Source: Balanoglossus misakiensis (taxonomy: Eukaryota > Animalia > Hemichordata). From it: 64,000 bases of DNA. Positions 715-61,910 of this stretch are shown piece after piece. Both the position numbers and the translations under genes were made by a program. Location of the stretch: the NCBI GenBank assembly GCA_040954595.2, contig CM082576.2, forward strand, positions 10,915,129-10,979,128, written 5' to 3'. Below the pieces are notes generated by a model, which had not been told where the DNA came from, did not search any database, and saw only the letters and a list, made by a program, of their open reading frames with translations. The number at the start of each line of letters is the position of its first letter. The stretch's first letter is position 1.

Positions 715-6974
<6,260 letters not shown>

Positions 6975-9900
6975 AACATTACATCGAGCGCTTTGAATAA
7001 CCATTGAAACCTGAAAACGACACCTTGCTCAAAACAAAATAAACAATCGATAGACTTTTCAGGATCTGTGACCGCCTTCTTGATTTCTGACGGTTCGGAA
7101 CAGCCGGGGCGCGGTGACTCTGCCTACGGCTGCTTCGAATTCAAGTGTGAAGCCAAGCAACCAGACTGCATACACATGGCATATTTGCATATAGCACTGA
7201 AAACCTTATGACAAAACACATGTCAATTTTGCGATGAGAAAGTTAATTTTATACGTCAACTGCAATGAACAAAAGCACTAGGTTAACATTTCTGTAAAAC
7301 AACCGCCGACAACCGTTCCATCCTTACGCGATGAGAGTCTGAATAGAAGCCGCAATGCCGTCTAACTGTTTGGTTGGCTTCACGCCTACACGCGAGGCAG
7401 GCTTTGGGCGGCAGAGTCACGTCCCGGCTGTTCCGCTGACACAGCCGAAAGTTCTTGGACAAACCATGGAGGTAATTGTACGTACAAGTAGGAGCAACCT
7501 CTAATGTTCTTCATTGGTCGTTGAACGCGCTTGCGCAGTTTGTCCACTAGGCTCAGTGTACGACTGAACGAGAAGTGCCCAGTGTGGCAATACATTTTAT
7601 TGTCTGACTTTCATTGTGGACAGAAGTCCTCGAGGGTAGTAAATCAACACAGAGAAGGATGTTTGTCGACTTCATTGAAATGAAATTACGCGTACATGTG
7701 TAGTCATTCACCAAGTACTCCGGATTGAAAATACTCTATTAAGCTGTAAAGTTTACAGCCTGGGTTCTCGACACACGAAACTTAATAGTCGCTGGGCATG
7801 TCCTAGAGAGCTGTGTACGGGGAGATTGCCATACATATCAGGTCTAACCCATCCTGGGTTAATGTAAAGCTCTAAACCACTGTCGTTTTCTCGATGTTTT
7901 TGTCTGAAGTTCAAAAAAGAAACGAAACGGGGCTACATCTTATTAAGGGGTGGGGGTCTTCATATATCCCATCTCATATGATATTTTGTTTGCACCATAA
8001 TCAAGACGTTTTACATAATTTAACATGGCAAGCACGTTTGGGGAGTTAAAAGCACCACGGATCTGATTCGTAGGGGGTTCCAGGTCGTCTTTCATTCGAT
8101 GAGAAGTCTTGCTTCGAAAAAAGATCTCGCGCAGGTACAACGCAGTTTAGCTCTGTGGGCGCTGTTTCCGTTTTTCAAAACACCTCGGCCATTTTTCGCC
8201 CAAGTGCCTGCACTACGTCTAGGTCGTTTCGCAGGGTAAACCCCGGCGTCACACGGTCACACCACTCCACCGTGGTCGTACCAATGGTTCACCTGGACAT
8301 TCCGCCGTCGTTTAGAGACAGAACGACCGGTCATAAAGTACCCCGATGACGCTGTCAACACCATTCTTGTGTTGCGAAATACAGTGAAAACCAGGAACGT
8401 ACAGTCCACCTTCAAGTGTTGCACGACTCCAGTGATCCGTCTCGCTTATTTGACTGTTGAGCTATCGTGGAGAATTCCAGCCATAATTAACAGCCCCAGT
8501 TTGGCGATCTACACTTGCAAATGCGGCCTTTTCATTAATATCTTACGGTCGATAATTAAAATTGCAAGTGAAATTGCAACGACCCACACGCGCACTCCGT
8601 GTACACCGACAATAAAAGGTGGCCATACACTTCATCCCCACGTCAGTTTTGGCCAATAAAAAAGAACGGTGTCGTCTAAAGAATGGCTTTCTTTCTGTTG
8701 CGTTTACAACATATTAAATCTTTGTACATTATTTTTCTAACTCACCAATATGAATATCTGTGGATCGACGTTTCCTGTTTTACAATAATGAATATGGGAC
8801 AACCTCAGTGTACGCGGCTAGAGCAGCGGTAATATTGACAATATCAAAGGTCAAGACTGGTGACACACTCCATGTCAAATGTGAAATATATGTCTCCATT
8901 ATTCATTGAGGCAGTTCGTAGAACCGATCCATTCTTCTTGTCTTTACGAGGAAATGAGCAAGTTGTCGCAGAAGACGAGTTCAGCAGCGCTGCAGTTGTC
9001 CGCGGTGCCGTGGACCGGTCTCTGCACCACTGATCGGTATGGGACTACCCAGACGTAATGCTTAGCTTGGAGTTTTATTGATTGATTTATGTATCGTAGT
9101 TTTTCTTGAATTTTTCGCATAAGGTCCAGGAAGACTAACCTTATCAAAAGACGCGAAGGAAATGCTTTGTCGCTGTGCTGATTGTTTCGGATAGATCTGA
9201 AATTGCCCTGAAAGACACTGAAAGAAATTACTTTGCGTGGTTTAAGCGGGACGACTTTCTTAATAGCAACAATCGGAAAGTCATCATGAATCATAAATAG
9301 TACAGTTTCAACGCCAGTGGCACACTTCTGACGTCATCACTGGCTGTGAAGGAAAGTTTGGCCCACTTTGGTCCAATGTTACCGCTATGGACTCACACTG
9401 AATAAATCCATCGATCGCCAGTGTTTACTAGCCTAAGGTTGTATATACAGAACAAGTACAGCGCCTCCGAAACGACCGTTCCCGTCGATGAAAGCAAATC
9501 GGGAAGTCGTGTCGAGAAAATATTAAAGGTTTGTTGAGATTGGGCGCCGTTGTAAGTGGTTGAAAGCAGTTAAAATGAAAAGGCACAACACTTGGTTGTT
9601 TCATTCCATACGACACGTGGATTCATTTGCACGAGGAGAAACATACATTTTGACTGTGATTGGGATCAGTAGGGAAATTTGAGGGGAGGGAGGGGGGTTA
9701 ACAAGCATGGATATGTACTTGCAGTGGTTAGCTGTTGGAGTTGTTACAGAAACTGATGGAAAAATTGTCCCCGTTTTACAAAGGCGATTAAATATCTGAA
9801 GTCTACTGGACATTGTCACATAATCCAAGCAAATAGTCCTTGAACAACACACCCCCAGACTTATGCAGGGTTTCCCCCCAGTGACAAACACGTCCAACTT

Positions 9901-19749: not shown

Positions 19750-20543
19750 CATCACGTGGAATTTTCCGCCATGGCTTTGTCCGTGGGTACCGCACGTGTC
19801 CAATCGAGAGAGTCACATTGTAATTTAGTCACCGAGTTTTGCTAAATGTCTATACGCACACGACATGGATTGAAATGCCTGGTTCCGTCTTACCCGCTGA
19901 TCACAATAGGCCAATCGCAGTATGCCGTCATCAGATCGGGTGGGTCCCCATTCGAAACGTCCCATTGGTGGGGAAAGTCAGTCCACGCGCCCGTTAACAA
20001 AATCCAAATTCGCGCACCGGGCTGATGGAGCCTCGTAACGGGAACGTAATCACGTCCAAATAATTCCAGTGACCAAACCGGCGCGAAAATGGACTTTGAA
20101 ATCGGAAATGTAAATCTATTGAACACAAGTAGGGCAGATAAGAGCCAGGAAGCCTTGGGAAGGACTGCCCCTTTATCGATTGTAGCGAGAGGGCCCGATT
20201 CCCTCATCACCTCCGGAAGTGGCGTCAAAGTAGATTTTTCATCCCCATTACGTTATGATCATGAACTTCAGGGATAACCCTGGTTCCCCTTTTCGCGCTT
20301 CGCGGAAACTGGCATAGGTTGACTCATTGGCGATCTTCATCAACCTATCAGCCCTGTCGATGACGTAAAATTCATGTTGGCGGCTACTGGCGGAATCCGT
20401 TAAGTAAGCGAAGACAAGGGAAACCCCATCGAAATGCTTTTTTCAGTAATTGTTACAAAAATAAGTAAAAATAATTTCATGACGTTCTCAGTCTATAAAA
20501 CACGGGGCATGGAGACAGAAAGAAACATACTAAGAACTACCAG
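19750..20543 (+). promoter_or_regulatory. Proximal inducible-type promoter and short non-coding exon of the cytokine-like gene
   Basis: TATAAAA at 20494; kB site GGGAAACCCC at 20418; kB-like GGGATAACCC 20271, GGGAAAGTCA 19971 and GGAATTTTCC 19758; AP-1 TGACTCA 20320; TGACGTAA 20361; GAS TTCGCGGAA 20299; ETS CCGGAAGT 20213. Donor CAG|GTAATA at 20543/20544 and acceptor ttttcccgccAG at 20742, 13 nt before the ATG. Confidence 0.65.
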
Positions 20544-20755
20544 GTAATAATGAACATCTAGATGTCCGTGACAGAACAGAGAACTTTTTTGTAATCTGAA
20601 AAATGTTTTGTTTTCATCGTCACTACGAGTAACAACATGGAGGTATTCCGTTATTGCAGTGGAATACTGCCATGCACAGCTTTGCGGCTATCAACTGAAA
20701 AATTGCCTAACCACTCCTTATTTCCTCTCATTTTCCCGCCAGAAAAAGCCAAAGA

Positions 20756-23582
20756 ATGAACTACTTCAAAGTCACGGTGGCGTTGTGCATCCTTGGAGCC
20801 GCGCTGTTGGCCTTTGCCGCGCAGCCGGGAGAGGCGAAATCGCTGAACTCTCTCCTCCGACAGAGACGGTCGACACGGTGCCAGGCCGAGACGAACTTCT
20901 GCCAATATGTCGTCAACGATCCTGTCCACAACTGGGACTACTACCTCCACAACCTGCTGGCCGAATACGTGAGTATGGCGTTGGCACTCAAAGGGTCGCT
21001 CACTTTTCGCGGCATTATTTTAGTTTCTCTTGATTGCTCATTTATGTTGTTCAGTTCACTGAAATATTCTGTATGACCGGTAGTCGCAATAATTTTAACT
21101 CACGCCCTGTATATGCATATGACACAGGTGTACTTAGATCATTTAAAATTTGACTGTGTCTCCCTATTTATACGGAAATTAACCCGAATAAGCTTATGCA
21201 CGAGATTTCGTTTCGACCCACCACACGAAAAATGCGACTCAATCGTGAAAGTACAATCCTTGGTAATCGTTTTATCTGTCATGAATTGGAAGACTCCTCT
21301 ATCGCACAGGCGGCTACCACAAACTATCGTCAAGATTTGTCTTTTACAAAATAAAATGTACGCACCAATTGATTTTGGATCACTCAGACACAATGAGGAC
21401 GTCTCTGGTAAATATTAAATAACTAATAACCGTGTCCAAATTCCTTTTTTTACTCCTTACAGAAAGACAGACGCCAGCCCAAACCAATCTGGCAAAGACC
21501 TCCATCTGGTTTGTTGATCTATGATACCGATACCACCTGCTTCAATGCTATGAACGTAAGTTGTAATATTGCGCATATCAAAATTTCAACAGAATTAACT
21601 CGTTCCTCTCTCTCTCCGTACTTGGACCAATTTGTTTTTTGGGCTTGGCTACAGCCTTGATGAAGGCATAATCCTAATATCAAACGGAGGATGTCAGATT
21701 ATTTTATTTGCGCTGTAACTTTTTCGGATGTCACGGGAAAACCCAAGCGCGTACCGTTGGTGTTGTAATTAACAGGTGCCAACCTCAACGGTAATTGATT
21801 AGCAGGGATTGTACAACACCACATGTACAGGATATTATGTCACCTTGTTACACACACCTGTCGATAAAGTGAACAAAACTGGCCATACCGGTAGTACCTT
21901 TTTAACCGACCGCAGATGGATTACGCGCAGTGAGCAAAAATGTTCCATCTAAATTAACGTGGTTTGGCAAGGGCGATTTTTTTTACAGTTTCCATCAGTA
22001 GGCTCTCTGTCTTGGGGGGGGGGATTTGAGTCATCCAAGAGAGTATTTTATAAATAGCACCGGAAATCTACGACTGTCATGGAACTGGCTTATGAATCAT
22101 GAATGGATGGAGTGCGTATCATACGCGCGCTGTTGACCACAACAATAATCAGTGGGCAGGACAATACATGATTGTAAACTTCGACCTTTGGTATACGGCG
22201 CTTCTGAAGAGAACAAATAATGTGACTTACGAGTTCAGTAGCGTATAGCAGTCTTGCCTTGATTTCAATTTGGGGTGCAGAATTACCCGGTGGTCGTTCC
22301 GTCGAGAGGTTCTTCTTACACGAACTCTGTTGCTTTGTCATTGCAGAAGGTCGACCAGGCGTGGGTCCACCAGTGCGAGCAGTCCGACATGTTACCCTGG
22401 GTGGCCAGAATTGTTCAGGACGAGACGGGCAGAAGCGACAGCTTGAGGGACGACTTCGTCACGCTGCAGACGTACGTCAACAACACGGTCAAGACACTCG
22501 ACAGCTACGTAAGTCCGGTCTCCAATCTCGCGAGACTTCAACCTCATGAGTAACACTATTCAAATTTACAGTGAAACGACTGGTGGGATCGCCACCTATA
22601 CACAAACGAAATCCACACAAAACTGTGCAAGTAAAACACAAAACCGTCAATACAATCTAAAACCAGGATGTACATGTTTCATTCGCGTGAATGAAAACGG
22701 GTACAATGGGGTCTCCCAACAACACTTGACCCGTACTTAGCAACATATTATTACGTGATATCACGGGTCACCAGCGGTGTGGCCACACCAATTGCGAAAA
22801 GCTTGGATTTATCAAACAAACGGTCTACAAAATAAACGTCCGGGTTCTCTCTACAAAAGGAAGTTCCATATATATAATTTAGTATAAAATAAACCGCAGT
22901 GTAGACTCAAGTGTGAGTCGGGATGTAGGGTAACTTACATCTGATTTAATCAATTGGACAGCGAAGGTCTTTAGACCAAATAAACTTTAGTCACGTTCGT
23001 ATACAGAACTCCTTTTATAGAGCACTTTTTGTTATGAAAGGTTAGGCGAGGTGAAACAATTAACTTTTTATTACATGGCGATTTCGAAGTTGGCAGAGCA
23101 CCAACCTTTTGCATTGGGGAAGGCCTTTACTCTGTAGCTTTTTATAAACGCATTCTCATCTCGACGATTTCTTTCTTTCTATTTCCCAGATTGCACCAAT
23201 GACGGCATGCGACAGCTATTCAGAGAACAATGGCTGCACCATTGATGAAATGGTTCCTCCTCCCCGCGCATGCGTCTGGGTAAGTATTTTTGTCAATCCC
23301 CAGAATATAAACTGCCCAGCCACGCGAGATCTCTCAGGCTCTCGCGGCGTTCCGTAAATGGTCCATTCACGCAAATTTCGCGTTTGACCACTTCACTTCC
23401 GAAGGTATACTGTTTGTTAACTGCATATACGTTCTCGTTCTATCTTGACTCTGCAGGATAACTCTATCGCCGCCGAGAGGGACATTGACTACTACACTTC
23501 TGTCCTGGAGAGCCTGGAAAGCTCCGGCAGCAAGATGCAACAGACCTTCCAGCAGTTTCGCCTGCCCGACGGTACCTGTTAA
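20756..23582 (+). CDS. Secreted 227-aa protein; putative long-chain four-helix (IL-6/IL-11/LIF/CNTF-like) cytokine
   Basis: Five coding exons with canonical splice sites and all phase-0 introns: 20756-20968, 21463-21555, 22347-22508, 23190-23279, 23457-23582. Protein: MNYFKVTVALCILGAALLAFAAQPGEAKSLNSLLRQRRSTRCQAETNFCQYVVNDPVHNWDYYLHNLLAEY|KDRRQPKPIWQRPPSGLLIYDTDTTCFNAMN|KVDQAWVHQCEQSDMLPWVARIVQDETGRSDSLRDDFVTLQTYVNNTVKTLDSY|IAPMTACDSYSENNGCTIDEMVPPPRACVW|DNSIAAERDIDYYTSVLESLESSGSKMQQTFQQFRLPDGTC. Confidence is about 0.9 for the gene model and about 0.65 for the cytokine call. Confidence 0.8.
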
Positions 23583-24700
23583 GGGATGTTGTCTCCACCG
23601 ACCGCCCTCGCTAAAGTAATCTTTATAAATTTAGTCGTGTGTGTGTGTAGTTTAACGGTGATATTTATTCTTTTTTTAAGTTATTGTTATTTGTAGGCAT
23701 TTCTTCAGCGAGACAAGTGTGAGTCATTATTTTCCCGAAAAGAAACAAACCGACCGTGTAAGAGTGAGCCGTTGTTTTGTCAATACGATTGATCGAAATT
23801 AATTCGTAAAAATGTTGAAATTGAAATAATCCAGATAATTTCAACGCAGGTCTATCCTAATTATTGGTTTGAAATGAGAGAGAAAATTGGAGGTAAAAAT
23901 TGAGCGACCTTCTTTAAATCGAAACAAAAATCCTTGACAAAACATTGGCAAGCTCTGAGTCTTAATTTTAAGTTGCTTGATTTCAAGCGATTTTCAGTGA
24001 TATCCCATGGATATGATCTGCAGAGGTTGGACGTAATTCCTAACCTCTATTAAAATTGTGAAATATAGGCTATAGCAAATTCTCTGACCCAGTCAACCGG
24101 GGTTCTAATCATTCTATTGTTTGATTCATTTTCGCTCTGTCTGTTGTTGTTCAAACGCGTCAACACCAAAACAAGTGTGATTTTTTTCATGATTCCCCGC
24201 GGCGTACAAAGCATGACCGCAAGTCTTTTATATAGTCTACGTTTCACAATTGGCCTATATTAGGCTTTTGAAACAACAGTATTTAATTAGTGTGATGATT
24301 TGCTAGGAAATGAAGTTTCCCACAATCATTGCAAGACTGCTTTAATTCTTGCCAAAACAGTAGCATTGTTACATTCAAATTTATCCGCCCAGTCTGTAGT
24401 CGTATTAGATTTTAAGAATAGAGTTTGCTTTAAAAGACATATAAGATGTAGTCGTTTAGTTGTGTGTTGATATATTTAAAATGTATTTATATTTTAACTT
24501 ATTTAGAAGTTTGCGGTGTAATTATTTCATAGTACCAGTAAGTTTGAAAGTGTTATTTTATCAGCGTCAAGTATTCAATGCATAATCTAGTTTCTTTTAA
24601 AAACTTAGATGTGTAGAGCATTTTGAAAAAGAAGTACAATCCCAATTTGTGATGGGTTTCTGAAAACGGCATTGTAATAAAATATTAGCGTTACAAATTA
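23583..24700 (+). promoter_or_regulatory. AU-rich 3'UTR of the cytokine-like gene with AUUUA elements and a polyA signal
   Basis: ATTTA at about 23629, 23663, 24281 and 24379, a cluster at 24474, 24485 and 24501, and AATAAA at 24676. Confidence 0.55.
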
Positions 24701-28223: not shown

Positions 28224-31200
28224 CTACGGTGTCACTTTGAATCCTGTCAACAGATACCCACTGCTGCCACTCATCATGTTTTCTGGATGTGTTCTTCTTG
28301 GCAACACCTGCAACGCAGAAAAACATTCAGACTATTGCCTCTACTTTTAGAGGATGGTCATTTTAAACACAAAACACTGAATTGCAAATTGCTGATATGT
28401 CTCTATACTCTAAAAGTCGCTATCAACTCTTGAGATTTTCACGGGTGTTTTGACAGTTTCAAACTTCATGTTATTAAAATTATACTCCCCCGAAGTGATT
28501 CTGTATGATTTTGAACCTTGTTCAACAAATGTAACCTTCCATACCTGATACTCCCGTAGCCAGTTCTCTGTAATCTTCACGTTGACAGTCTCTTTGCTCT
28601 CCCGCAACTTCCCGAAACATTCGTACAGCGGCTGGAGATGAAATGGGATGTCATTTTTCGTTTTCAACAATCAGACAATTGTACCAAAATTTAGTGTGAA
28701 TTTGCTAATGATAACAGAAATGCAGGTTAACTCCCACCACCTCTATCACAGACATTTCGCTCATAACGAGCATGTTTCAATTATCCACATCAAGAGATGT
28801 TTGGCAACAAGTTTGCCAGCAAAACACTTCAGTTTGTTTCTCACCTCAATGTACTGGCTGTACACCATGAATGGTCTGGACGGCGCTAGGAAATCCAACA
28901 GTTTCATCACAATGGGACACGGGTCATATTTGCTGGCTATGATAAGTCTGTATTATGGGAGAGAGAGAGAGAGAAGAAACACGCAAAAGATCATGCTTAG
29001 AATGCATAATGTGCAGAATTGCGAGATTTGACAACAGCCACCAACAATCAACTAAGGCATTATGACCTCACTCTTTGTATCTGAATGAATGTACTTACAC
29101 ATCAAAGTCTCCCTGTTCTACTACATTCCTGGCCGCCTCTAACTGTTGTCTCCGCTTCTCCTTTTTGGCCAATCTCTCCGGGTTCTGAAAACAATTAAAA
29201 TGTTGAGAAAAAAAAAGTACAGTTTGTGACAGTACAATCTAAATGCCTATAGACTAAAGCTGGCAAAAAGAACAATATAACATACGTTTACATCTTCCTG
29301 ACTTTGCCATTGAAATGTTTTCTAATGCCAATAAACTACACATTACTTACCACTGGTCTCTTTTGTCCTCTTGGTGAAGCAGGAGCAGTTTCCTCATCCA
29401 CTGCTGAACTTGCTTCAGCCTCATCTGTTGCCATGGTTACATCCTCATCATTGCTGGAAGAGTCCTTCTCCTCTTCTGTTTTCACAGCGGCAGCAGCTTC
29501 ACTGCCTATGTTCTCCTCCTCGGTGTCAGACACAGTCTCCTCGCCACTTACTTTCCTGGAGTCAGTCCCACTGTCCTTGACATCATCGCCGACTTTCCCA
29601 CATCCGCTTTCTACATCGCTCGTCCATCTCGCATCACCACCGACTCGCTTGCTGCCAATCCCTGCATCACTAGTTTCCATGGCAACGCTAGGATCGGCTG
29701 CACCGTCACCTTCCTCAGTCTTCAATCTTTTTACCTCTCTCTCCCCGTCATCAGGTGCAGCCTGCGAAGCTGACTGCACCGGTGTCCTTTCATCAGATTT
29801 CTCGGCTGCAGGCTGAATTTTTAGGCTGTTCGCCTTGTTCAACGGAAAACTGTGAAGTATCTGGAAGAATTCTTTGGGGAAATTGAAACCATCCATGGAG
29901 GTCCTCACAGGTGCTTCGCCATGGTACATGTGTACAAGAGTGCCAAGCCCTGAAATCAAACAAGGTATTTCATAGTTGGTTTGACCAGACCACGACATGA
30001 CAACGGGACTGGACCTCACCTTGGTGGTGGCAGGGTCAAAATCTTTCTACAGATGTTAAAACAAGCAACTTGAGGGAGTATGTATGAATTATTTTCAGTA
30101 TTCTGCAGTTACTTTATGTGGCAGAAGTTTATAACCAGTACGGCTTCCAAAAGCTCACCTCCCATTCTGTCCATGACGGCTCCAAGTAGAAGTCCCATGC
30201 AGCTTTCCACAACCATGGCTTTCATGTTTGCATGAACGTTGCTGAGAGTTAATATCTGGCCCATTGTGTCGTTGCGAAGAAAACTGAGAAATGAACAGAA
30301 TTATCACCATGGGTTTTCCTGCACTATCACAACCTATGATATTATTTACATGTTAACAGTTAATTAAAGGTTGCAACACCCACGAGCATTACAGTGTTCA
30401 CCCTTAAATGAATGAATTGGCAACTGGCACCCCACTTACACGACTTTCGGTGATACTTTGCTCTGGTACATTTCACACATCAATCTCGTGGTTGGTCTCA
30501 GAATGGTGAACAGAGGAATGTGCCTGTTGAGGGAAGCATGTTAAAAAATATCAGACACTAATAAGAAGTTTAAATCCACCAGAATCACCACTTCAAAGCA
30601 TCCCTACAAGACTATAGTCAATAGACACTTCTCATATGGTAAATTGAAACTTAAATCTCTATTAGCTGAAACTTTTGACTATTTTTATGTACAGTAAAAA
30701 ATGTACTTACTTTTGCTTTTTCTTTTTGATGTATTTTTCTTGAGAATAAATATTCTTCTCTTTAAAAGTTGCACTGTTCTCAACAATCTGATCAATCAAC
30801 TCCTGTAACATTGAAAAAACAGGAGGAAGTATTTCACTGATGCCTGTTGCTGTAAACATACTTCATACAAAAAACAAGCATTTCTCACTTTCACATAAAG
30901 TTGAAGTTAACTAGGTTTTCATTCCCTAATATGTTATCTCTCTTACCTCTCCTTTCATTCCATCTTTCTTCAATGCCATGATCTCATCCTGTGATAACTT
31001 TTGTGCCGTGTTGTCATCAACTATGTTTCTGTTGTCACCGACATCATGAATGTCTGGCAAAAAAGCAACAGTTGAAGTACTCAATAATACATACAGTCAC
31101 TACATATTGGGAAGTACATAGTACAAATAAGACCATTAGCCATTTCCTCTGTGACAGCATTGACTCCGTAGTATATCTGTGATCGAGGCCCCGTTAAGAT

Positions 31201-31645: not shown

Positions 31646-32362
31646 GCTGTCGCCCGCGAAATTTCGGTATGATGCAAACAGGAGTGAAACTAAAGCGTTA
31701 CCTATAACCGGAAGTCATTTCCACATGGAGCACATTCGTTTGTTCGGAGGAGAACGAACGCTTTCCTCATGGTGACGTCATAAACTCGAACAAACGGTGG
31801 CGTTGTCACGGACTTTTGTTTTTATGTGGAACACTTCTAACCATACACCGTGCGTACGCGTGGTCATATCCAAAACATACGAATGCGGATAGAAACACAA
31901 CTGAAAAAAAGGTATGAAATGCTTCACAGAATATTTAATGTAGATGAGTGTGTGTAAAAGAGTTTGTTATTGTAAATATTATGAATATAGGACACGATAA
32001 TCTTCACGCTTGTTCCTGCTATTTCCACTGCCGCATATGTCTCCGTCTCATGCAGACTTCATGGACTTTGTTCCCCCGAAAGTTGATATTTCCGTTTTCT
32101 TGAAACCTCATACTACAGTACGTTCAGATTATTTAGGCAGTGTTATAATATAAAAGGGAAGTAATTAAACACAGATCACGAATAACAATTCTTCTTTCAC
32201 ACTAAATTCCTTTCACGTATGCTTTTATTCAGGTAAGAGACGGTGTACTGCTGCATGAGTTCAGTTGGAGTAACACTCATATAAATGTAGATTGCAGTTA
32301 TAGGATGCAGGACAAAATCAACCGAGCGATGGTAACTGAAATTAGGGAATTCCAACGAGCGC
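31646..32362. promoter_or_regulatory. Putative bidirectional promoter region between TRMT6 and the 661-aa ORF
   Basis: Head-to-head start codons about 720 nt apart; ETS CCGGAAGT at 31708 and CRE TGACGTCA at 31773. Confidence 0.45.
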
Positions 32363-34348
32363 ATGGATCACACCAGCCACAGTAACTTATCGGTAGACAG
32401 GCCGCTTCCAAGTTTATTAAATTTGGCCCAAGCCCAATCACACAAGAAGAATGAATACGATCTGGCAGCCTCGGCAATCGCATCTGCCCACTCATTTTCA
32501 TCTTTTGTAATTCCGGGCGCGGCCGCGGGTTCAATACTGAATCTGTTGCCAGAGTTACAAGGCAGTTCATCCAAGTATTACTACGACCCCGCTGACGCCG
32601 ATTTGCACAACTGGACACTTCTGGACAAATCGGTGCTAGAGGCACTCGAACCGTACGCACACCAGCTTTCCAGTTCTTTATACGAAACCTACACTTTCGT
32701 GAACGAGTTGTCGGGGCCTTCTGGTTTGCGCCTGGCGAAGACCAGCCGACCGCTAGCCATTGCAGCCGGCCTCGCCAGTTTTATCAACAAGACGTACCAA
32801 AAGCACGGAAAGGGTGTAACGCGCGCCTCGAGCGACAGAACGGATTCGCACAAAACGATCGCCGCACCGCACGACGCGCACGCTTCTTCTTCTTCTTCCG
32901 AAGACAAAAAGAACGCTCGGTTTGAATATCGGCGTGGCGGGGACGTTAGACCAGAGCTAAGCTGTGACAAAGATGAACTCTTGGAAAATCTGAACCTACA
33001 GAAGTTGCACGACTTCATCCTCGATATACAGGAAAAGGACTTTGCCGCTGAATTGGACATTCCCCCGAGAAGCTTTCAGGTGACCGACAGCGAAGGCAGC
33101 GAGGAAATGTTTGGCCCAAACGTCCACTTCAAAGGGCCAAACACCAGGCGCCCCGCGGTGATAGTTGTAAAACCGCATAAACTGTGGAATACGTCCAACA
33201 GCAGCACAGCAGCGAGCAATGATGACCGAACGCAACAAAAACCACCAATTAATGAAGATAGGAGGAAAACGTTTTTCCCAGAAGAGAACAGAGTTACATA
33301 TTTCATATATTCCGGCGACGGACAGAAGTATTTGCGCAGGTTTCAGCAGATAAAGGAATCCAACTGCCACCATTATCGGGTCGTTGTCATGTTTTCTACA
33401 AAGCACGCCAAGACTGGACCACTCTCTTGCTCTGATGATGCCAAACTACTTCACGATGATAACGAAGAGGACGTCGAAACACTGTCTGCCACTCTCAACT
33501 TTCACAAAAGCGATCATTTCGAAGATTATTCTGTTAATAGCATGTCGAACACTATGGAATATCTGAAAGATGTAGGTGTGACCAAGACCTCATCCCTACA
33601 CGACGAACTGAAAGCTGGGGGCATGGAGTCCCTCAAATCCGAATATTACGGCGCGGATGATGGTAGCAGTAACTCGGTGGTCGCCACGGATGACGAAAGA
33701 CAGCGCAGCCTGAGCGTGCCAAACTTACAGAATTGGGTCAAAATGACTTCTATTCCTGACGACGATGGGGTCGACGAAACTACGAAAGATAAGCCCCGGG
33801 ATAAGCCTAAAAATGCCAAAAATCCCAGGATTAAGTTACTTAAAGATACGATTCAGAAGAAAATGAAACAGCTGAGGAAGCGCAGAGTAAGCCCGTTGCC
33901 GGGCAACGACGAAACTAACAGAACTAGTAGAAGCACCCAGAAATATGAGGAGTGCATGCAATACATCAAAATGTGCACCAGGCCGCCGGCGAACGGCCTC
34001 CGAGTGACGCTGTACGTGCAGACGCCGGACAGGTTTGAGATGTGCAAACTCAAGACAGATTTCCTCATCCACTCGATGAAGCTGTTCTTCTCGTCCCCGA
34101 AGGACAGAATCGACATTCGCTCGGTGTCGCACATCGCCGACGAGCTAGAGTCGATCATCGAGCAGTACGGTGCACGGTCGCAGTTCGAGTACGACTTCGA
34201 AAACCTACTCGTCTGTCGTGCCGCTCTGGTGGTGCCGAGAGAAGCAGGCATTTTGACCAAGAGGCGAAATTCGTACTTTCTCGGCAACATTTGTGAAGTT
34301 CTCGAAATTCGACGAGAACAGCTGGTCGTGTTACTAGCCTACAAGTAG
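32363..34348 (+). CDS. Intronless 661-aa protein of unrecognised family
   Basis: 1986-nt uninterrupted ORF bounded by an upstream in-frame TAA (32333); coding-like composition with ordered blocks separated by acidic/basic low-complexity linkers; AATAAA at about 34490 and 34501. Confidence 0.75.
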   Translation: MDHTSHSNLSVDRPLPSLLNLAQAQSHKKNEYDLAASAIASAHSFSSFVIPGAAAGSILNLLPELQGSSSKYYYDPADADLHNWTLLDKSVLEALEPYAHQLSSSLYETYTFVNELSGPSGLRLAKTSRPLAIAAGLASFINKTYQKHGKGVTRASSDRTDSHKTIAAPHDAHASSSSSEDKKNARFEYRRGGDVRPELSCDKDELLENLNLQKLHDFILDIQEKDFAAELDIPPRSFQVTDSEGSEEMFGPNVHFKGPNTRRPAVIVVKPHKLWNTSNSSTAASNDDRTQQKPPINEDRRKTFFPEENRVTYFIYSGDGQKYLRRFQQIKESNCHHYRVVVMFSTKHAKTGPLSCSDDAKLLHDDNEEDVETLSATLNFHKSDHFEDYSVNSMSNTMEYLKDVGVTKTSSLHDELKAGGMESLKSEYYGADDGSSNSVVATDDERQRSLSVPNLQNWVKMTSIPDDDGVDETTKDKPRDKPKNAKNPRIKLLKDTIQKKMKQLRKRRVSPLPGNDETNRTSRSTQKYEECMQYIKMCTRPPANGLRVTLYVQTPDRFEMCKLKTDFLIHSMKLFFSSPKDRIDIRSVSHIADELESIIEQYGARSQFEYDFENLLVCRAALVVPREAGILTKRRNSYFLGNICEVLEIRREQLVVLLAYK

Positions 34349-39300: not shown

Positions 39301-40979
39301 GACCTCCAGCTATTTTAAAAGTAATGTGAACCACAACACATTTTTATCTGGCCTGAATTAAGTAATTGAACATATTATTATTAAAATACATGTACAACTG
39401 TACTTGTATACGGGCAAACAGACACTGAAAGTTTGAAAGCCATGTAATCACACACTTGGAAAAAGATACACGGACCCAATTCACATACCCCCTTTAACCT
39501 GCGTACATTGTACCTTAAGAATGCATGGTTCACGGCTTAACATCTGGTCAAATTCCTAGTCAGAGTGTGACATGACCTATATTACAAGCAGACTCAGGTC
39601 CTGTGGAGTTGATGAAGATCATCCCAACCTGAGAATACAGCATGCACTAGGTCAGACACCAAGGTCAGGTCACCACACAGTCTCCCTGAACACGTCCAGT
39701 CTAGGGTGTCATTCATTCATTCATTCATTCATTCATTCCCTTTTGATAACCTTACCTGCAAAAGGCACGTAGATTTGTCTGATGCCAGAATGGAAGGAGA
39801 TAAAGACATCAAACTTGTATTTGGCTGTAATCTCTGTCAACACTGCACATTCCGGTTCTGCGAATACAGAAAACATGGATTGGAGTCAGCTCTGTCCTAG
39901 TTAAAATACATTATGGGTTGCTAATGTGCTGTGATGTGAAACCAGTGTACAGTCTCGTCCATGATGATTGCAGTTTGATGGAAGCCATGCTTGGGGTCAC
40001 TTTCCTATGATATGATGCTTGCTACATCAAGACTGACAATTATAACACTATAGAAAGTGTAACTTTGGTTATTACAACAAACAGTTTCAGCCATTTACCA
40101 TGATGCACTTGTATGTAAAGCAAATGAGAGTGACCTTAATTTTTCAGATTTTGTTCTACTCATCATCCCATTGGAGCTAGCCCACTCATAGAATGAGGTA
40201 CCTACCACTCCTGGGTAAGATCGAGTTGCCATATTGTGAAGAATCTGGACAAAATGTTTTTGGATGAAGTGAATCAGAGCATGGACGTGTCTAATACGTC
40301 CATACCCAGAAGTTCAGAATCATCCATACTTGTTATACATGTACACACCTGAAAATGCATGCACTCCCCTATACTCTTCATCCTTGGAGTTTCCTGAGCT
40401 GCCACGCCCACCAAACAACCAATCAAAATTCCGGTTGAGATCAACTCCGGTACTGGTGCCCCTCCAACAGTAATTCTCAGTCTCCTCTATGTAGTGTCTC
40501 CCGTCTGGATTCACCATGGCAATTATAAACAAGTCCAGTTTGGAAAGAACCTTTCTGCTGAAACTCTCCCCGTAACTTCCCCTGGGAGCGGCCAGACCGC
40601 TTGTGATGTTCTGAAGTAAGTAAATCATGCTTTCCACGGGGAAGTATTCTCTGGCGTGTTCCCCGAACGACAGTAAAATTTTGGGCTTGTGCTGAGACAG
40701 CCTGTACGTCCCTGTGAACCTGTGGCTGTCTGAAAAATTTGTCATCCTCACTACATACTGGGGTCTCCCTTGACGTGAGGTATAGTCTTTCTCCAATTTT
40801 AAGTAGTAAGGATTCCTAGAGACTATTTCTTCAAGGTGCTGACCCAATCTTTGCATGTTGTGATAGTATTTGTAATCGGGTATGTATAATTCATTTTGAC
40901 GTCTCACATCTCTGCACTGGCACTTTTGTAAATACACGAGAATAAAGAGTACCATGATCTGTATAGTCCTTTCTTCCAT
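36374..40979 (-). CDS. M14-family zinc carboxypeptidase lacking a prodomain, with a C-terminal transmembrane helix, about 424 aa, 6 coding exons
   Basis: Exons 40349-40979, 39756-39857, 37637-37809, 37264-37359, 36955-37053, 36374-36547. Signal-like N-terminus IMVLFILVYLQKCQC; motifs FGEHAREYF, VNPDGR, WRGTSTGVDLNRNF, YRG.HAFSEPE, SFHSG, YVADGTIFDY, FAIEL; TM segment LVYAFLAFFIMAVVFIAI followed by a basic tail. Confidence 0.88.
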
Positions 40980-42009
40980 ATCGATACTTTTAAACAATGC
41001 CTTTGCCTCGCCGTGAACCTCGACAGTTTGGTAGATCCAGCTGCATGTGTTTATGCCTTCGGATAACGTTTCACAAATGTAGACTCAGCTGGCTTGATTA
41101 AGCATGTCTAACATGGTTGAACTTGGTCTGATTTTTTGGTCATTAATGCTCATTACATGTGAAAACTTATATACACCTCAACACACTTGAAAGGCACGAA
41201 ATCTCGTCGTGTATCTGACACAGAATAAACACACATGGGCATAGTGCAGTGAGAGTTGCGGACTGATCTCAGACCAGTAATGATAATCTGTACACAACAC
41301 AGCAGAGTGTCAGGGTCATCGGGACCATAGACTTACTCCATCCTCATCCATGGAGCTCCGTTGAGAAGAGATGTACATGTATGCTGCTACCATTACCAGA
41401 TGGATTGCGCGAGGACGATTCCAACTTATCGAATCCTGAAGGCGTTCGATTGCCTATCCAGACACTCATGCATACCACAGTGGTTCACTTTACCGTATCA
41501 TCGACGCTTGAACTTTGGACAACACATGGTTATCTCAGTAACTGCGATTCGGATTGAAACATACTAACATACACTCCAAACGAAACTCTCAAACTCTCCT
41601 CCACGTCGGTCGTCTAAACTGCGCCGGAGTTGTGCGCAGGGGAAACCTCTGCCTCGTACAAGGTATTAGCTGAAGTGCGGATTAAAGAATGGTGGGTTTT
41701 CATATATCTCGACATTTAACTAAATAAGCCGATGTAGATAACATAAAACTTTACGCGTGTTATTGATAAAGCAACTTAACTGTCAACATTTTGAAGTACG
41801 AGTGCAACCCTGAAATCAGTGAACAGTCCGAGGGGAAACTTTACCCATGCGCAGACCGATTAGGGAATCCCCACAAACTCTTATACTGCCCTCTCGCGAC
41901 CACTATTTCAACTCAGTGTAACCCTTGACCTTTGCGAATGTTTTCAAAACGTGTTGTTAGCTTCAGCTTTAGGTGTTCTGTCCGTCTTTTAAATTGCAAA
42001 TACCCGAGA

Positions 42010-42940
42010 ATGTCTTCATCCACGGAGCAAAATGCAGCTGCTAACGTTAGCGAAGGGGCCAGTGAAGCCCAAGCCAACAAAATGGCTGGAAAAGCAGAAA
42101 TTCTTGCAGAACTAGAGAGTCGGGGATTTGACATTATAACAGTTGAACATCCCGAGGTAAAGGACTATGCTGTGGGCATGGGGGATATACATATGTACAA
42201 AATGTGATGGGAAAGGGCATAGGAACTTGTATAGCTATCTATACAACATACTGTTACGCGACTATACATGTATATGTAGCAATGTATGTCTTGTAACTAG
42301 CTGTCACTCAGAATATGTCATCTGTCACTGTGCATCATGCATTGGTTGGATTGCAAACTTACAGACATCTTCATAAACAATTAACAGTTCCCATCATATG
42401 CAGATAACTGATGCTGGTGTGTTCAAATCTCCCATTAACAAAGAAAATGCAGTTTGAACTCATACATCAATCTTATAACTTTGTTGCATCATTTTACTTA
42501 CCACATAGGTTTTCACAGTGGAGACAATGATGCCTCATCTTAAAGATGTACAAGGTGTTCCAGCGAAGAACTTCTTCATGAAGGACAAAAAGAAGAAAAG
42601 ACTATGGCTACTCACTACCCGCTATGACCGAGAGGTGAACCTAGCAAAAGTCGCCAAAGAGGTCGGAGGTTCCGGTGGCTTTCGATTTGCAGACGAAGCC
42701 ATCATGTTGGAAAAGATCGGCGTTGGTCAAGGCTGCGTCACCCCGCTTGCATTGTACAACGACAAAGGCCAGGATGTGCGACTGTTACTGGACAGTGACC
42801 TCGTCAATGGTGGACACGAACGTATATTCTGTCACCCCATGGTGAATTCAGCATCCACTGGTCTCAAGCCGGACGATTTTGTGAAATTCATGGAATCTAC
42901 CGGTCACTCACCAGTTTTAGTCAACTTTGAGAATCTGTGA
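42010..42940 (+). CDS. PRORSD1: Prolyl-tRNA synthetase-associated domain protein (ProX/PrdX, YbaK-family tRNA deacylase), 192 aa, 2 exons
   Basis: Exons 42010-42156 and 42509-42940; motifs VEHPEVFTVE, KNFFMKDKKKK, FRFADE, GVGQGCVTPLALYND, FCHPMVNSAS. Confidence 0.92.
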
Positions 42941-45535: not shown

Positions 45536-46614
45536 AAAGGTCACAGAGAAAAAGCAAACAATTTGGCTTTTCTGCAGGTTGAAAATCTTAAATGAACAGA
45601 AATACAAAATTTACTATATTTTTTGACATAGACCAGCTAGTTAAAACTTACATGAACTATAAACTTGGACAAGTCATCAATAATACAGTATTGTCTGCAA
45701 AATTTGCCACACAATCTCTCACTGTGTTTCCATGAGAAATCCCTGTTATGTGTGGTTCATTAAAAAAATCACTCAAAATTTAAAAATCATTATTGCAAGT
45801 AAAAGCAATACCTTTCTATAACTCATCAATCTAAAACGCAGACTTGCATTTTAATAGGTCCAGCTGGAACACTCGGCCGAATGCCCAAAGTTAAATAGTA
45901 AGTGTACAATGTCTACTTTGATCAAAATTACATCTTAGCAAACTACAGATAAACACTTGTTTTTGACCAGCAACAGAACAGAGATAATCCCACCAAAGTT
46001 TCCGGACCTTACCGTATTGCTAAATTTCATATACATAGAGAGTCCAATACATAACACCCATGATGCAGTCACTGTCACAGGCAAAAAAAAAAACTATGTG
46101 CCTTGTAGTGACAAGTCAGAATTTCAATCCATGATTTTTTTTATTCAAATATACAATGCTTTTCTACCTATTTTTTTTTTTACAATCCTCTGGTTTTTTT
46201 ACAATGTACAAACAAGTTCATTACTCATCAATGGAATGATTTTATTGCCAAAAAAATCCACAGCAAAAAGTAAAAGTAAGTATATTAAAAGTGACAGTAA
46301 ATTTTTCAGAATGATCAGCTGGGCATTCACTTCTCGTTCTAGAATACACTATGATTTTATTTCTATGATATTGGGAAACCTTTACAGCCAGATGGAGTTC
46401 AGTGCAGACAACCTTTACATCTTAAATTACAGAGTTTGTAAAAAATCAATTCTTTACATTACATACATGTATCAAATTCATCTTACATATTTAAATTACA
46501 GATATAGAAGTTAAAATTTTCTTGACAAGTTTTACTGTCTCTCTAAAAGCCTAATTTACATAATGCTCCCAAATATGGAAACCAATTTCCATATATGGTA
46601 TGGTCACGTGACTT

Positions 46615-61910
<15,296 letters not shown>

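Follow-up and report, generated by a model that had tools for sequence, protein, structure and literature searches.

A five-exon gene on the forward strand of a 64,000-nucleotide stretch of contig CM082576.2 of the acorn worm Balanoglossus misakiensis (hereafter the window) probably encodes a cytokine. Its product of 227 amino acids is predicted to adopt the long-chain class I helical cytokine fold, with a shape nearest to IL-11, CLCF1, IL-6 and CNTF, and it would likely serve as an inducible signal of infection or injury that acts through a gp130/Domeless-like receptor and JAK-STAT. We observed its exon layout, its orthologues in other acorn worms and the consensus matches in its promoter directly. 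It is the fold that decides for class I, since the intron layout taken alone points at least as much to class II, the interferon/IL-10-like cytokines. We classify the protein as a long-chain class I-fold cytokine by its predicted shape and do not assign it as an orthologue of the IL-6 family, because the Pfam models do not match, the mapping of receptor site III is equivocal and receptor use is a proposal.

Gene structure and acorn-worm relatives

The coding exons (213, 93, 162, 90 and 126 nt) all have lengths divisible by three, and all four introns between them are of phase 0 and run from GT to AG, with pyrimidine-rich acceptors (Table 1). A sequence-only reading of this DNA had proposed the same layout, and it was confirmed in the spliced product, an open frame of 227 amino acids with zero internal stops. 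The junctions are placed by splice signals, homology and codon bias, the GC content at third codon positions being 0.52-0.89 in the coding exons versus ~0.41 for the GC content of the window. A further intron probably lies in the 5' untranslated region (UTR). An upstream in-frame ATG at 20509, which would create a phase-2 coding intron, seems less likely as the start: the TATA-like box begins only 15 nt before it, and the orthologues use the downstream Met. No second copy of the gene was found by tblastn within the 64-kb window, and no notable repeats were found at the locus.

The exon 1 query had one match, an uncharacterised RefSeq protein of Ptychodera flava (XP_070579238), which shares 74% identity with the spliced product and aligns with it gap-free over 188 mature residues, hence across all four junctions. 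Relatives in Saccoglossus (XP_077862471) and Glandiceps (XP_078001066, P0005) are 55% and 52% identical, respectively. Similarity to the Glandiceps protein starts at the exon 2 boundary, and neither a signal peptide nor helix A is present in its model; exon 1 of this model is probably mis-modelled, and the point at which similarity starts indirectly suggests that intron 1 is conserved in Glandiceps. A phmmer search against 1.84 billion representatives returned four proteins, namely the three acorn-worm proteins and a repeat protein (P0007) whose match covers 32 residues and was dismissed as spurious. No additional relatives came from a profile search among 912 candidates; this search needs shared exact words, so distant echinoderm or lancelet relatives may escape it. 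Relatives were found in the three acorn-worm species only, and the acorn-worm source of the gene is, judged by sequence, probably closest to Ptychodera.

Saccoglossus also has a paralogue (P0006), 41% identical, which is joined to a carboxypeptidase in XP_002739484.2. This fusion is probably a merged gene model and not a real one: a signal-like segment opens its second part, and the two genes lie ~14 kb apart in the window. The position of a carboxypeptidase next to the cytokine candidate in both Saccoglossus and the window suggests a conserved neighbourhood and a hidden second copy in Saccoglossus.

The chain appears to be of the secreted type, with a signal-like N-terminus and no membrane segment. 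The signal peptide was called from hydropathy only, which peaks at 2.64 from residue 8 and is at most 0.49 past residue 30, and the mature part comprises 188 amino acids. A furin-like RQRR-S motif (20858-20872, codons 35-39) has similar basic counterparts in the three other complete sequences, and predicted helix A begins right after it. Eight mature cysteines are invariant across the family alignment; helix D, which in the GH/PRL-type arrangement is tied to the AB loop by a disulfide, next to a small disulfide loop at the C-terminus, has no cysteine in the family sequences. In the alignment, and independently of AlphaFold, the Pro/Gly fraction is 0.03-0.05 in exons 1, 3 and 5, which carry amphipathic stretches, and 0.13-0.14 in exons 2 and 4. 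For exon 4 it is 0.13, and the hydrophobic moment reaches at most 0.28 inside this exon.

Predicted fold

The fold was predicted on the P. flava orthologue instead of the product spliced from the window. Its mature chain (residues 37-224) was modelled from a very shallow alignment, to which three further proteins and the five exons of the window contributed rows, and the best AlphaFold model had a predicted local distance difference test (pLDDT) score of 78.8 and a predicted template modelling (pTM) score of 0.79. Its four helices, A (4-36, kinked), B (64-89, 26 residues), C (97-122, 26 residues) and D (159-181, 23 residues), are joined by long AB and CD loops of 27 and 36 residues and a short BC loop of 7. 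In helix lengths, loops and up-up-down-down superposition, the model agrees with the long-chain four-helix topology.

We searched 48,161 PDB representatives with VIA without a Foldseek pre-filter. Ranks 1-31 were all helical cytokines and ranks 1-11 all long-chain class I. The group comprised IL-11 (8qy4_A; Z 14.3, root-mean-square deviation (rmsd) 3.2, 156 aligned residues), CLCF1 (8d7h_D; Z 14.2, rmsd 3.3, 164 aligned), IL-6 (1alu_A; Z 13.7, rmsd 2.8, 143 aligned) and CNTF (Z 13.4, rmsd 3.4, 141 aligned), and IL-27, viral IL-6, placental lactogen (12.0), LIF and GH (11.8) and OSM (11.7) were also among the top class I rows. The best class II chain was a fish interferon (IFN; Z 10.0, rmsd 3.1, 128 aligned), and the best non-cytokine reached Z 7.1. 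In a second VIA comparison, with 475 Foldseek chains, CNTF came first (Z 15.6, rmsd 3.0, 161 aligned), and the first class II row was IFN-lambda3 at rank 48 of the best 50 (Z 10.2). Because VIA rows within 1 Z unit are ties, the structure data choose the class and not a vertebrate member of it. Foldseek gave probabilities of 0.82-0.98 and template modelling (TM) scores of 0.50-0.60 for PRL, GH, CNTF and IL-27p28, versus 0.38 and 0.36 for IFN-tau. The helical-cytokine homology put forward in the sequence-only reading is upheld, and the gp130-type group it named tops these VIA searches.

Intron positions

In the numbering of the P. flava model, the junctions fall at 32/33, 63/64, 117/118 and 147/148, and introns 1-3 lie near or at the helix limits 36 (end of A), 64 (start of B) and 122 (end of C). 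When four introns are placed at random, all three helix boundaries are hit within 5 residues with p 0.003, or ~3.5e-4 together with phase, the tolerance of 5 residues having been picked after the model was seen.

The fold tools give the first and last aligned residues only, and intron 1 was extrapolated from the first aligned pairs along helix A. It falls at about CNTF 39, CLCF1 62, LIF 45-46, IL-6 43-44, IL-11 62, PRL 41, GH 33 and G-CSF 37, in each case 1-2 residues from what we take to be the helix-A intron of that gene. The match once drawn to CNTF, LIF and CT-1 holds in position but does not single them out, because GH, PRL, G-CSF, IL-6 and IL-11 fit about equally; intron 1 is a general helical-cytokine intron. 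It was also said to follow directly on the tyrosine that ends helix A. Exon 1 does end on Tyr71, which is invariant in 4/4 sequences possessing a true exon 1 (Glandiceps P0005, whose model has a different first exon, was excluded), but this residue sits in the final turn of the predicted helix, four residues short of its end.

Introns 2 and 3 match what we take to be the remaining two domain introns of IL-6, IL-11, G-CSF, GH and PRL. We know of no counterpart of intron 4 in these five genes, and, to our knowledge, CNTF, LIF and CT-1 have no counterparts of introns 2-4. Introns 1-3, which mark the end of helix A, the beginning of B and the end of C, are likely ancient helical-cytokine introns. 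Intron 4 is an additional one within the CD loop; with it, the gene has the five-exon arrangement that elsewhere is typical of class II. Five coding exons with 0-0-0-0 phases are a class II signature (PMC8863823, PMC5332411, bioRxiv 2026.05.30.728932), and the IL-6 gene has only three of its introns in the domain, a further one interrupting the signal peptide (bioRxiv 2026.04.02.716188). Unlike IL-11, whose first intron lies 7 bp after the start codon (PMC3271213), the acorn-worm gene has no signal-peptide intron; one probably ends 13 nt before the ATG.

Promoter and 3' region

Four of the five tested motif classes occur within 130 bp just ahead of the TATA-like box, a combination seen nowhere else in the 64 kb. 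When the 300 bp were shuffled 5000 times, four classes never came together and three did so in 3 shuffles; in 100 shuffles of the whole window, no 200-bp stretch contained four. These sites are consensus matches, which do not show function. The order AP-1, CRE (cAMP response element), NF-kB, TATA is presumably that of the mammalian IL-6 promoter, which we take to be of an inducible type resembling the promoter of the candidate gene. No consensus of the interferon-stimulated response element (ISRE), the fifth class tested, was found in the 1.26 kb upstream. The 1.6 kb after the stop codon contains 8 ATTTA motifs, versus 1.9 per kb across the window.

Weighing the evidence

Several observations weigh against a class I cytokine. 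No cytokine family was matched in Pfam by any of 6/6 family queries at E up to 10 or 3/3 at E up to 0.5, and IL6, IL11, CNTF, LIF_OSM and Hormone_1 gave no match in those searches. PDB sequence searches returned no cytokine, the Pfam and PDB matches being sub-threshold and unrelated only, and sequence identity in the cytokine superpositions is 4-14%. The five models, built on a very shallow alignment, ranged widely in pLDDT (78.8, 68.5, 59.8, 43.5 and 43.2), and the full-length P. flava model was poor (pLDDT 42.6, VIA Z <7), its searches merely leaning to PRL and CNTF. No Foldseek match had an E-value <0.001 (best 0.30), and VIA warns that a helical-bundle Z below ~13 can reflect a common arrangement, the best here being only 13-15.6. 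By language-model features in the ESM Atlas, P0003 came near PRL, IL-6-like, IL-12A, CT-2, G-CSF, IL-11 and CLCF1 clusters at 0.75-0.77, which points towards class I as a lead only, the scores being below 0.9; an ESM Atlas search with Saccoglossus residues 35-222 gave no usable match.

Further caveats concern the receptor site, the intron phases, the motif list of the promoter and the signalling pathway. In the gp130 family, an aromatic residue of site III (Trp or FxxK) stands at the start of helix D. Offset mapping from the aligned ends alone would put the site III aromatic of IL-6, IL-11 and CNTF near Ala192/Glu193, which are non-aromatic; the invariant Trp186 lies 6-7 residues before them, in a loop with pLDDT <50. 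Four phase-0 introns alone have p ~0.04-0.06, given that 0.45-0.5 of animal introns are of phase 0. Phase alone is weak evidence, because p is ~0.05 and the adjacent carboxypeptidase gene is also rich in phase 0 (3 introns of 4 resolved; 5 tried); the earlier argument from phase-0 introns to cytokine homology is stronger for position plus phase than for phase by itself. The motif list of the promoter was fixed after the NF-kB and CRE sites had already been spotted by eye. The JAK model of Saccoglossus consists of the kinase domain only (PMC13203501).

The likeness to the gp130 family (IL-11, CLCF1, IL-6, CNTF (8d74_D/1cnt), IL-27p28, LIF and OSM) lies in the predicted long-chain four-helix bundle, at Z 11.7-15.6, and in the intron near the end of helix A. 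IL-11 and IL-6 presumably share the introns at the start of B and the end of C as well, and the B+C exon of IL-11 is, we assume, also 162 nt long. The acorn-worm gene differs from this family in its identity of only 7-14%, the eight invariant cysteines and furin-like propeptide site, the extra CD-loop intron and, apparently, a site III aromatic out of register.

The same fold class would also accommodate an endocrine factor of the GH/PRL/leptin kind whose receptor forms homodimers, in place of an inflammatory signal of the gp130 type; we regard this as unlikely. Prolactin was the top Foldseek row for both models and the best named ESM Atlas cluster, and the VIA scores of the group (Z 11-12.9; PRL 12.0-12.9, placental lactogen 12.0, GH 11.8) come within 1-3 units of the gp130 group, yet VIA places IL-11, CLCF1, IL-6 and CNTF above them. 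The chain length fits PRL and GH best (net difference -1 to -3), the protein shares their C-terminal cysteine, and a site III aromatic apparently out of register would fit this reading too, but Hormone_1 has no Pfam match and the acorn-worm gene has an extra intron. The helix-A intron of GH and PRL, at the position we assume for it, lies within 1-2 residues of intron 1. A gene with this cluster of NF-kB, AP-1, CRE and GAS (gamma-activated sequence) sites and an AU-rich 3' end would probably be induced rapidly, which argues against an endocrine role and resembles inflammatory genes.

A class II identity, which the sequence-only reading had kept as an alternative, would move class II from chordates back to the deuterostome ancestor, and we consider it quite improbable. 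The gene shares with the IL-10 family, IFN-lambda, fish type I IFN, IFN-upsilon and the lamprey and lancelet IFN candidates its five coding exons and four phase-0 introns, a signal peptide in coding exon 1 and a last exon that bears the last helix. It passes the gene-level screen behind IFN-upsilon and the lancelet IFNs, which asks for a signal peptide, many helices and five coding exons with phase-0 introns throughout (PMC8863823, bioRxiv 2026.05.30.728932). In many IFN-lambda genes an intron precedes the start codon (PMC5332411), as one probably does here. To this extent the alternative stood up, but class II members have five or six helices, with an additional long one before the last, whereas exon 4 here encodes a loop rich in Pro, Gly and Cys in which the model shows no more than two turns of 4 residues, mostly at low confidence. 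Interferons superpose at Z 9.8-10.2 and class II as a whole at 7.7-10.2, whereas class I matches are ~4 Z units higher and cover more residues. The mature chain of 188 amino acids and the lack of an ISRE consensus in the 1.26 kb upstream also speak against class II.

That the gene encodes an unrelated secreted helical protein or an IL-34/CSF-1-like ligand of a receptor tyrosine kinase, its fold owed to AlphaFold bias on a shallow alignment and its phases to chance, is highly improbable: the lack of sequence homology to cytokines, the wide spread among the five models, the phase-0 runs in the neighbouring gene and the Z of 9.7 for IL-34 would fit, but the model aligns over 140-165 residues in crossed-loop cytokine topology at twice the Z of any other bundle, the exon-wise pattern of helix and loop is visible without AlphaFold, and intron positions and promoter agree independently.

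Proposed mechanism and significance

If the gene encodes a class I cytokine, infection or injury would switch it on through NF-kB, AP-1 and CREB/ATF, the GAS site would provide STAT feedback, and the AU-rich elements would shorten the life of the mRNA. The signal peptide would be cleaved near residue 27 and the protein secreted, and the furin-like site at 35-38 would be cut after residue 38, giving a mature chain of 188 residues with up to four disulfides. This helical bundle may then dimerise a gp130/Domeless-like class I receptor and so engage JAK-STAT.

In the literature, class I receptors and JAK-STAT are reported across invertebrates, and a 2026 survey finds IL-6 in vertebrates only and an IL6R/gp130-like receptor and a JAK in Saccoglossus (PMC13203501). 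IL-6 itself has lately been traced to lampreys (bioRxiv 2026.04.02.716188). Ligands of the invertebrate class I receptors are mostly missing, and the acorn-worm gene is a concrete candidate in a non-chordate deuterostome. Its conservation in three acorn-worm species plus B. misakiensis makes the origin of IL-6-type signalling directly testable. Amphioxus has a GH-like protein, which we take to be another precedent for an invertebrate class I ligand, and the Unpaired proteins of Drosophila have a four-helix cytokine fold. Unpaired 1-3, the Domeless ligands, resemble the proposed role of our candidate as invertebrate JAK-STAT ligands and are the precedent for class I in insects (PMC13203501), but they gave no sequence match to the acorn-worm protein in any search.

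Two points are new here: a deuterostome outside the chordates has a ligand candidate, and its gene combines a predicted class I fold with a class II exon layout. We found no description of a hemichordate helical cytokine in the full-text literature searched, most subscription papers being outside its reach, and no source that names the acorn-worm relatives as cytokines. The preprint bioRxiv 2026.05.30.728932 reports no IFN-fold secreted protein outside chordates, and the genomes screened there may not include acorn worms. Our candidate passes the gene-structure filter for IFN-upsilon and the lancelet interferons and is yet predicted to have a class I fold, which calls for caution in such screens and offers a clue to the split between the classes. 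Tentatively, and with more doubt than confidence, we suggest that the gene preserves an exon layout that class I and class II inherited from a common ancestor. Intron 4 would in that case be ancestral, retained by interferon/IL-10 genes but lost from the long-chain class I genes of vertebrates, and the gene would be the missing hemichordate JAK-STAT ligand and a pro-orthologue of the CNTF, CLCF1 and IL-11 group. If true, the 0-0-0-0 signature would not be diagnostic of interferons in invertebrates.

The ESM Atlas search by features had at rank 1 a cluster without a Pfam family (0.81, 56 members, 223 aa, mostly Cnidaria). Further invertebrate helical cytokines may be represented by this cluster and by one from molluscs with an IL6 Pfam share of 11%. 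The ESM Atlas structure search with its own model (pLDDT 0.36) was uninformative.

Features of the locus and neighbouring genes

Table 1. Features of the cytokine candidate gene and its surroundings, in window coordinates
Feature	Position	Strand	Remarks
Coding exon 1	20756..20968	+	213 nt, aa 1-71; signal-like peptide, furin-like RQRR 35-38, Cys42/Cys49, most of predicted helix A, last residue Tyr71
Intron 1	20969..21462	+	phase 0, 494 nt; predicted helix A ends four residues later
Coding exon 2	21463..21555	+	93 nt, aa 72-102; long AB loop with mini-helices, Cys97
Intron 2	21556..22346	+	phase 0, 791 nt; exact start of predicted helix B
Coding exon 3	22347..22508	+	162 nt, aa 103-156; helices B and C, Cys112, N-glycosylation sequon at Asn147
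Intron 3	22509..23189	+	phase 0, 681 nt; predicted helix C ends five residues later
Coding exon 4	23190..23279	+	90 nt, aa 157-186; Pro/Gly/Cys-rich CD loop (Cys163, 172, 184; invariant Trp186), model mostly low-confidence
Intron 4	23280..23456	+	phase 0, 177 nt; in CD loop, 11 residues ahead of helix D (class II-like position)
Coding exon 5	23457..23582	+	126 nt including stop, aa 187-227; helix D and terminal Cys227
Putative non-coding first exon	20522..20543	+	start inferred from TATA-like box; donor at 20544
Putative 5' UTR intron	20544..20742	+	GT..AG; acceptor 13 nt before ATG
Distal relaxed NF-kB-like site	19758..19767	+	motif match
GAS (STAT) consensus site	20299..20307		motif match
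AP-1 consensus site	20320..20326		motif match
CRE/ATF consensus site	20361..20368		motif match
NF-kB consensus site	20418..20427		matches both strands
TATA-like box TATAAAA	20494..20500	+	fails strict 8-base pattern at last base
Putative AT-rich 3' UTR	23583..24700	+	7 ATTTA up to 24505 (three in 24474-24505), AATAAA at 24676; extent inferred
Carboxypeptidase A/B-like gene	3700..7000	+	upstream of cytokine candidate, same strand
TRMT6	28500..30050	-	
Second zinc carboxypeptidase piece	40323..41084	-	Peptidase_M14, E 8e-22
PRORSD1	42509..42937	+	
MSK kinase (RPS6KA5-like)	46600..54300	-	

The human counterparts of TRMT6, PRORSD1 and MSK (20p12, 2p16, 14q32/11q13) presumably lie in paralogous regions with CNTF and CLCF1 (11q12-13) and with IL11 and IFNL (19q13). 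As a lead, this neighbourhood does not separate class I from IFN-lambda. A 670-codon stop-free frame at 32336-34345 (+) had no significant Pfam match. An intron of the carboxypeptidase gene contains a long trinucleotide microsatellite (~5830-5985), which gives rise to poly-Leu/Val/Cys/Asn frames.

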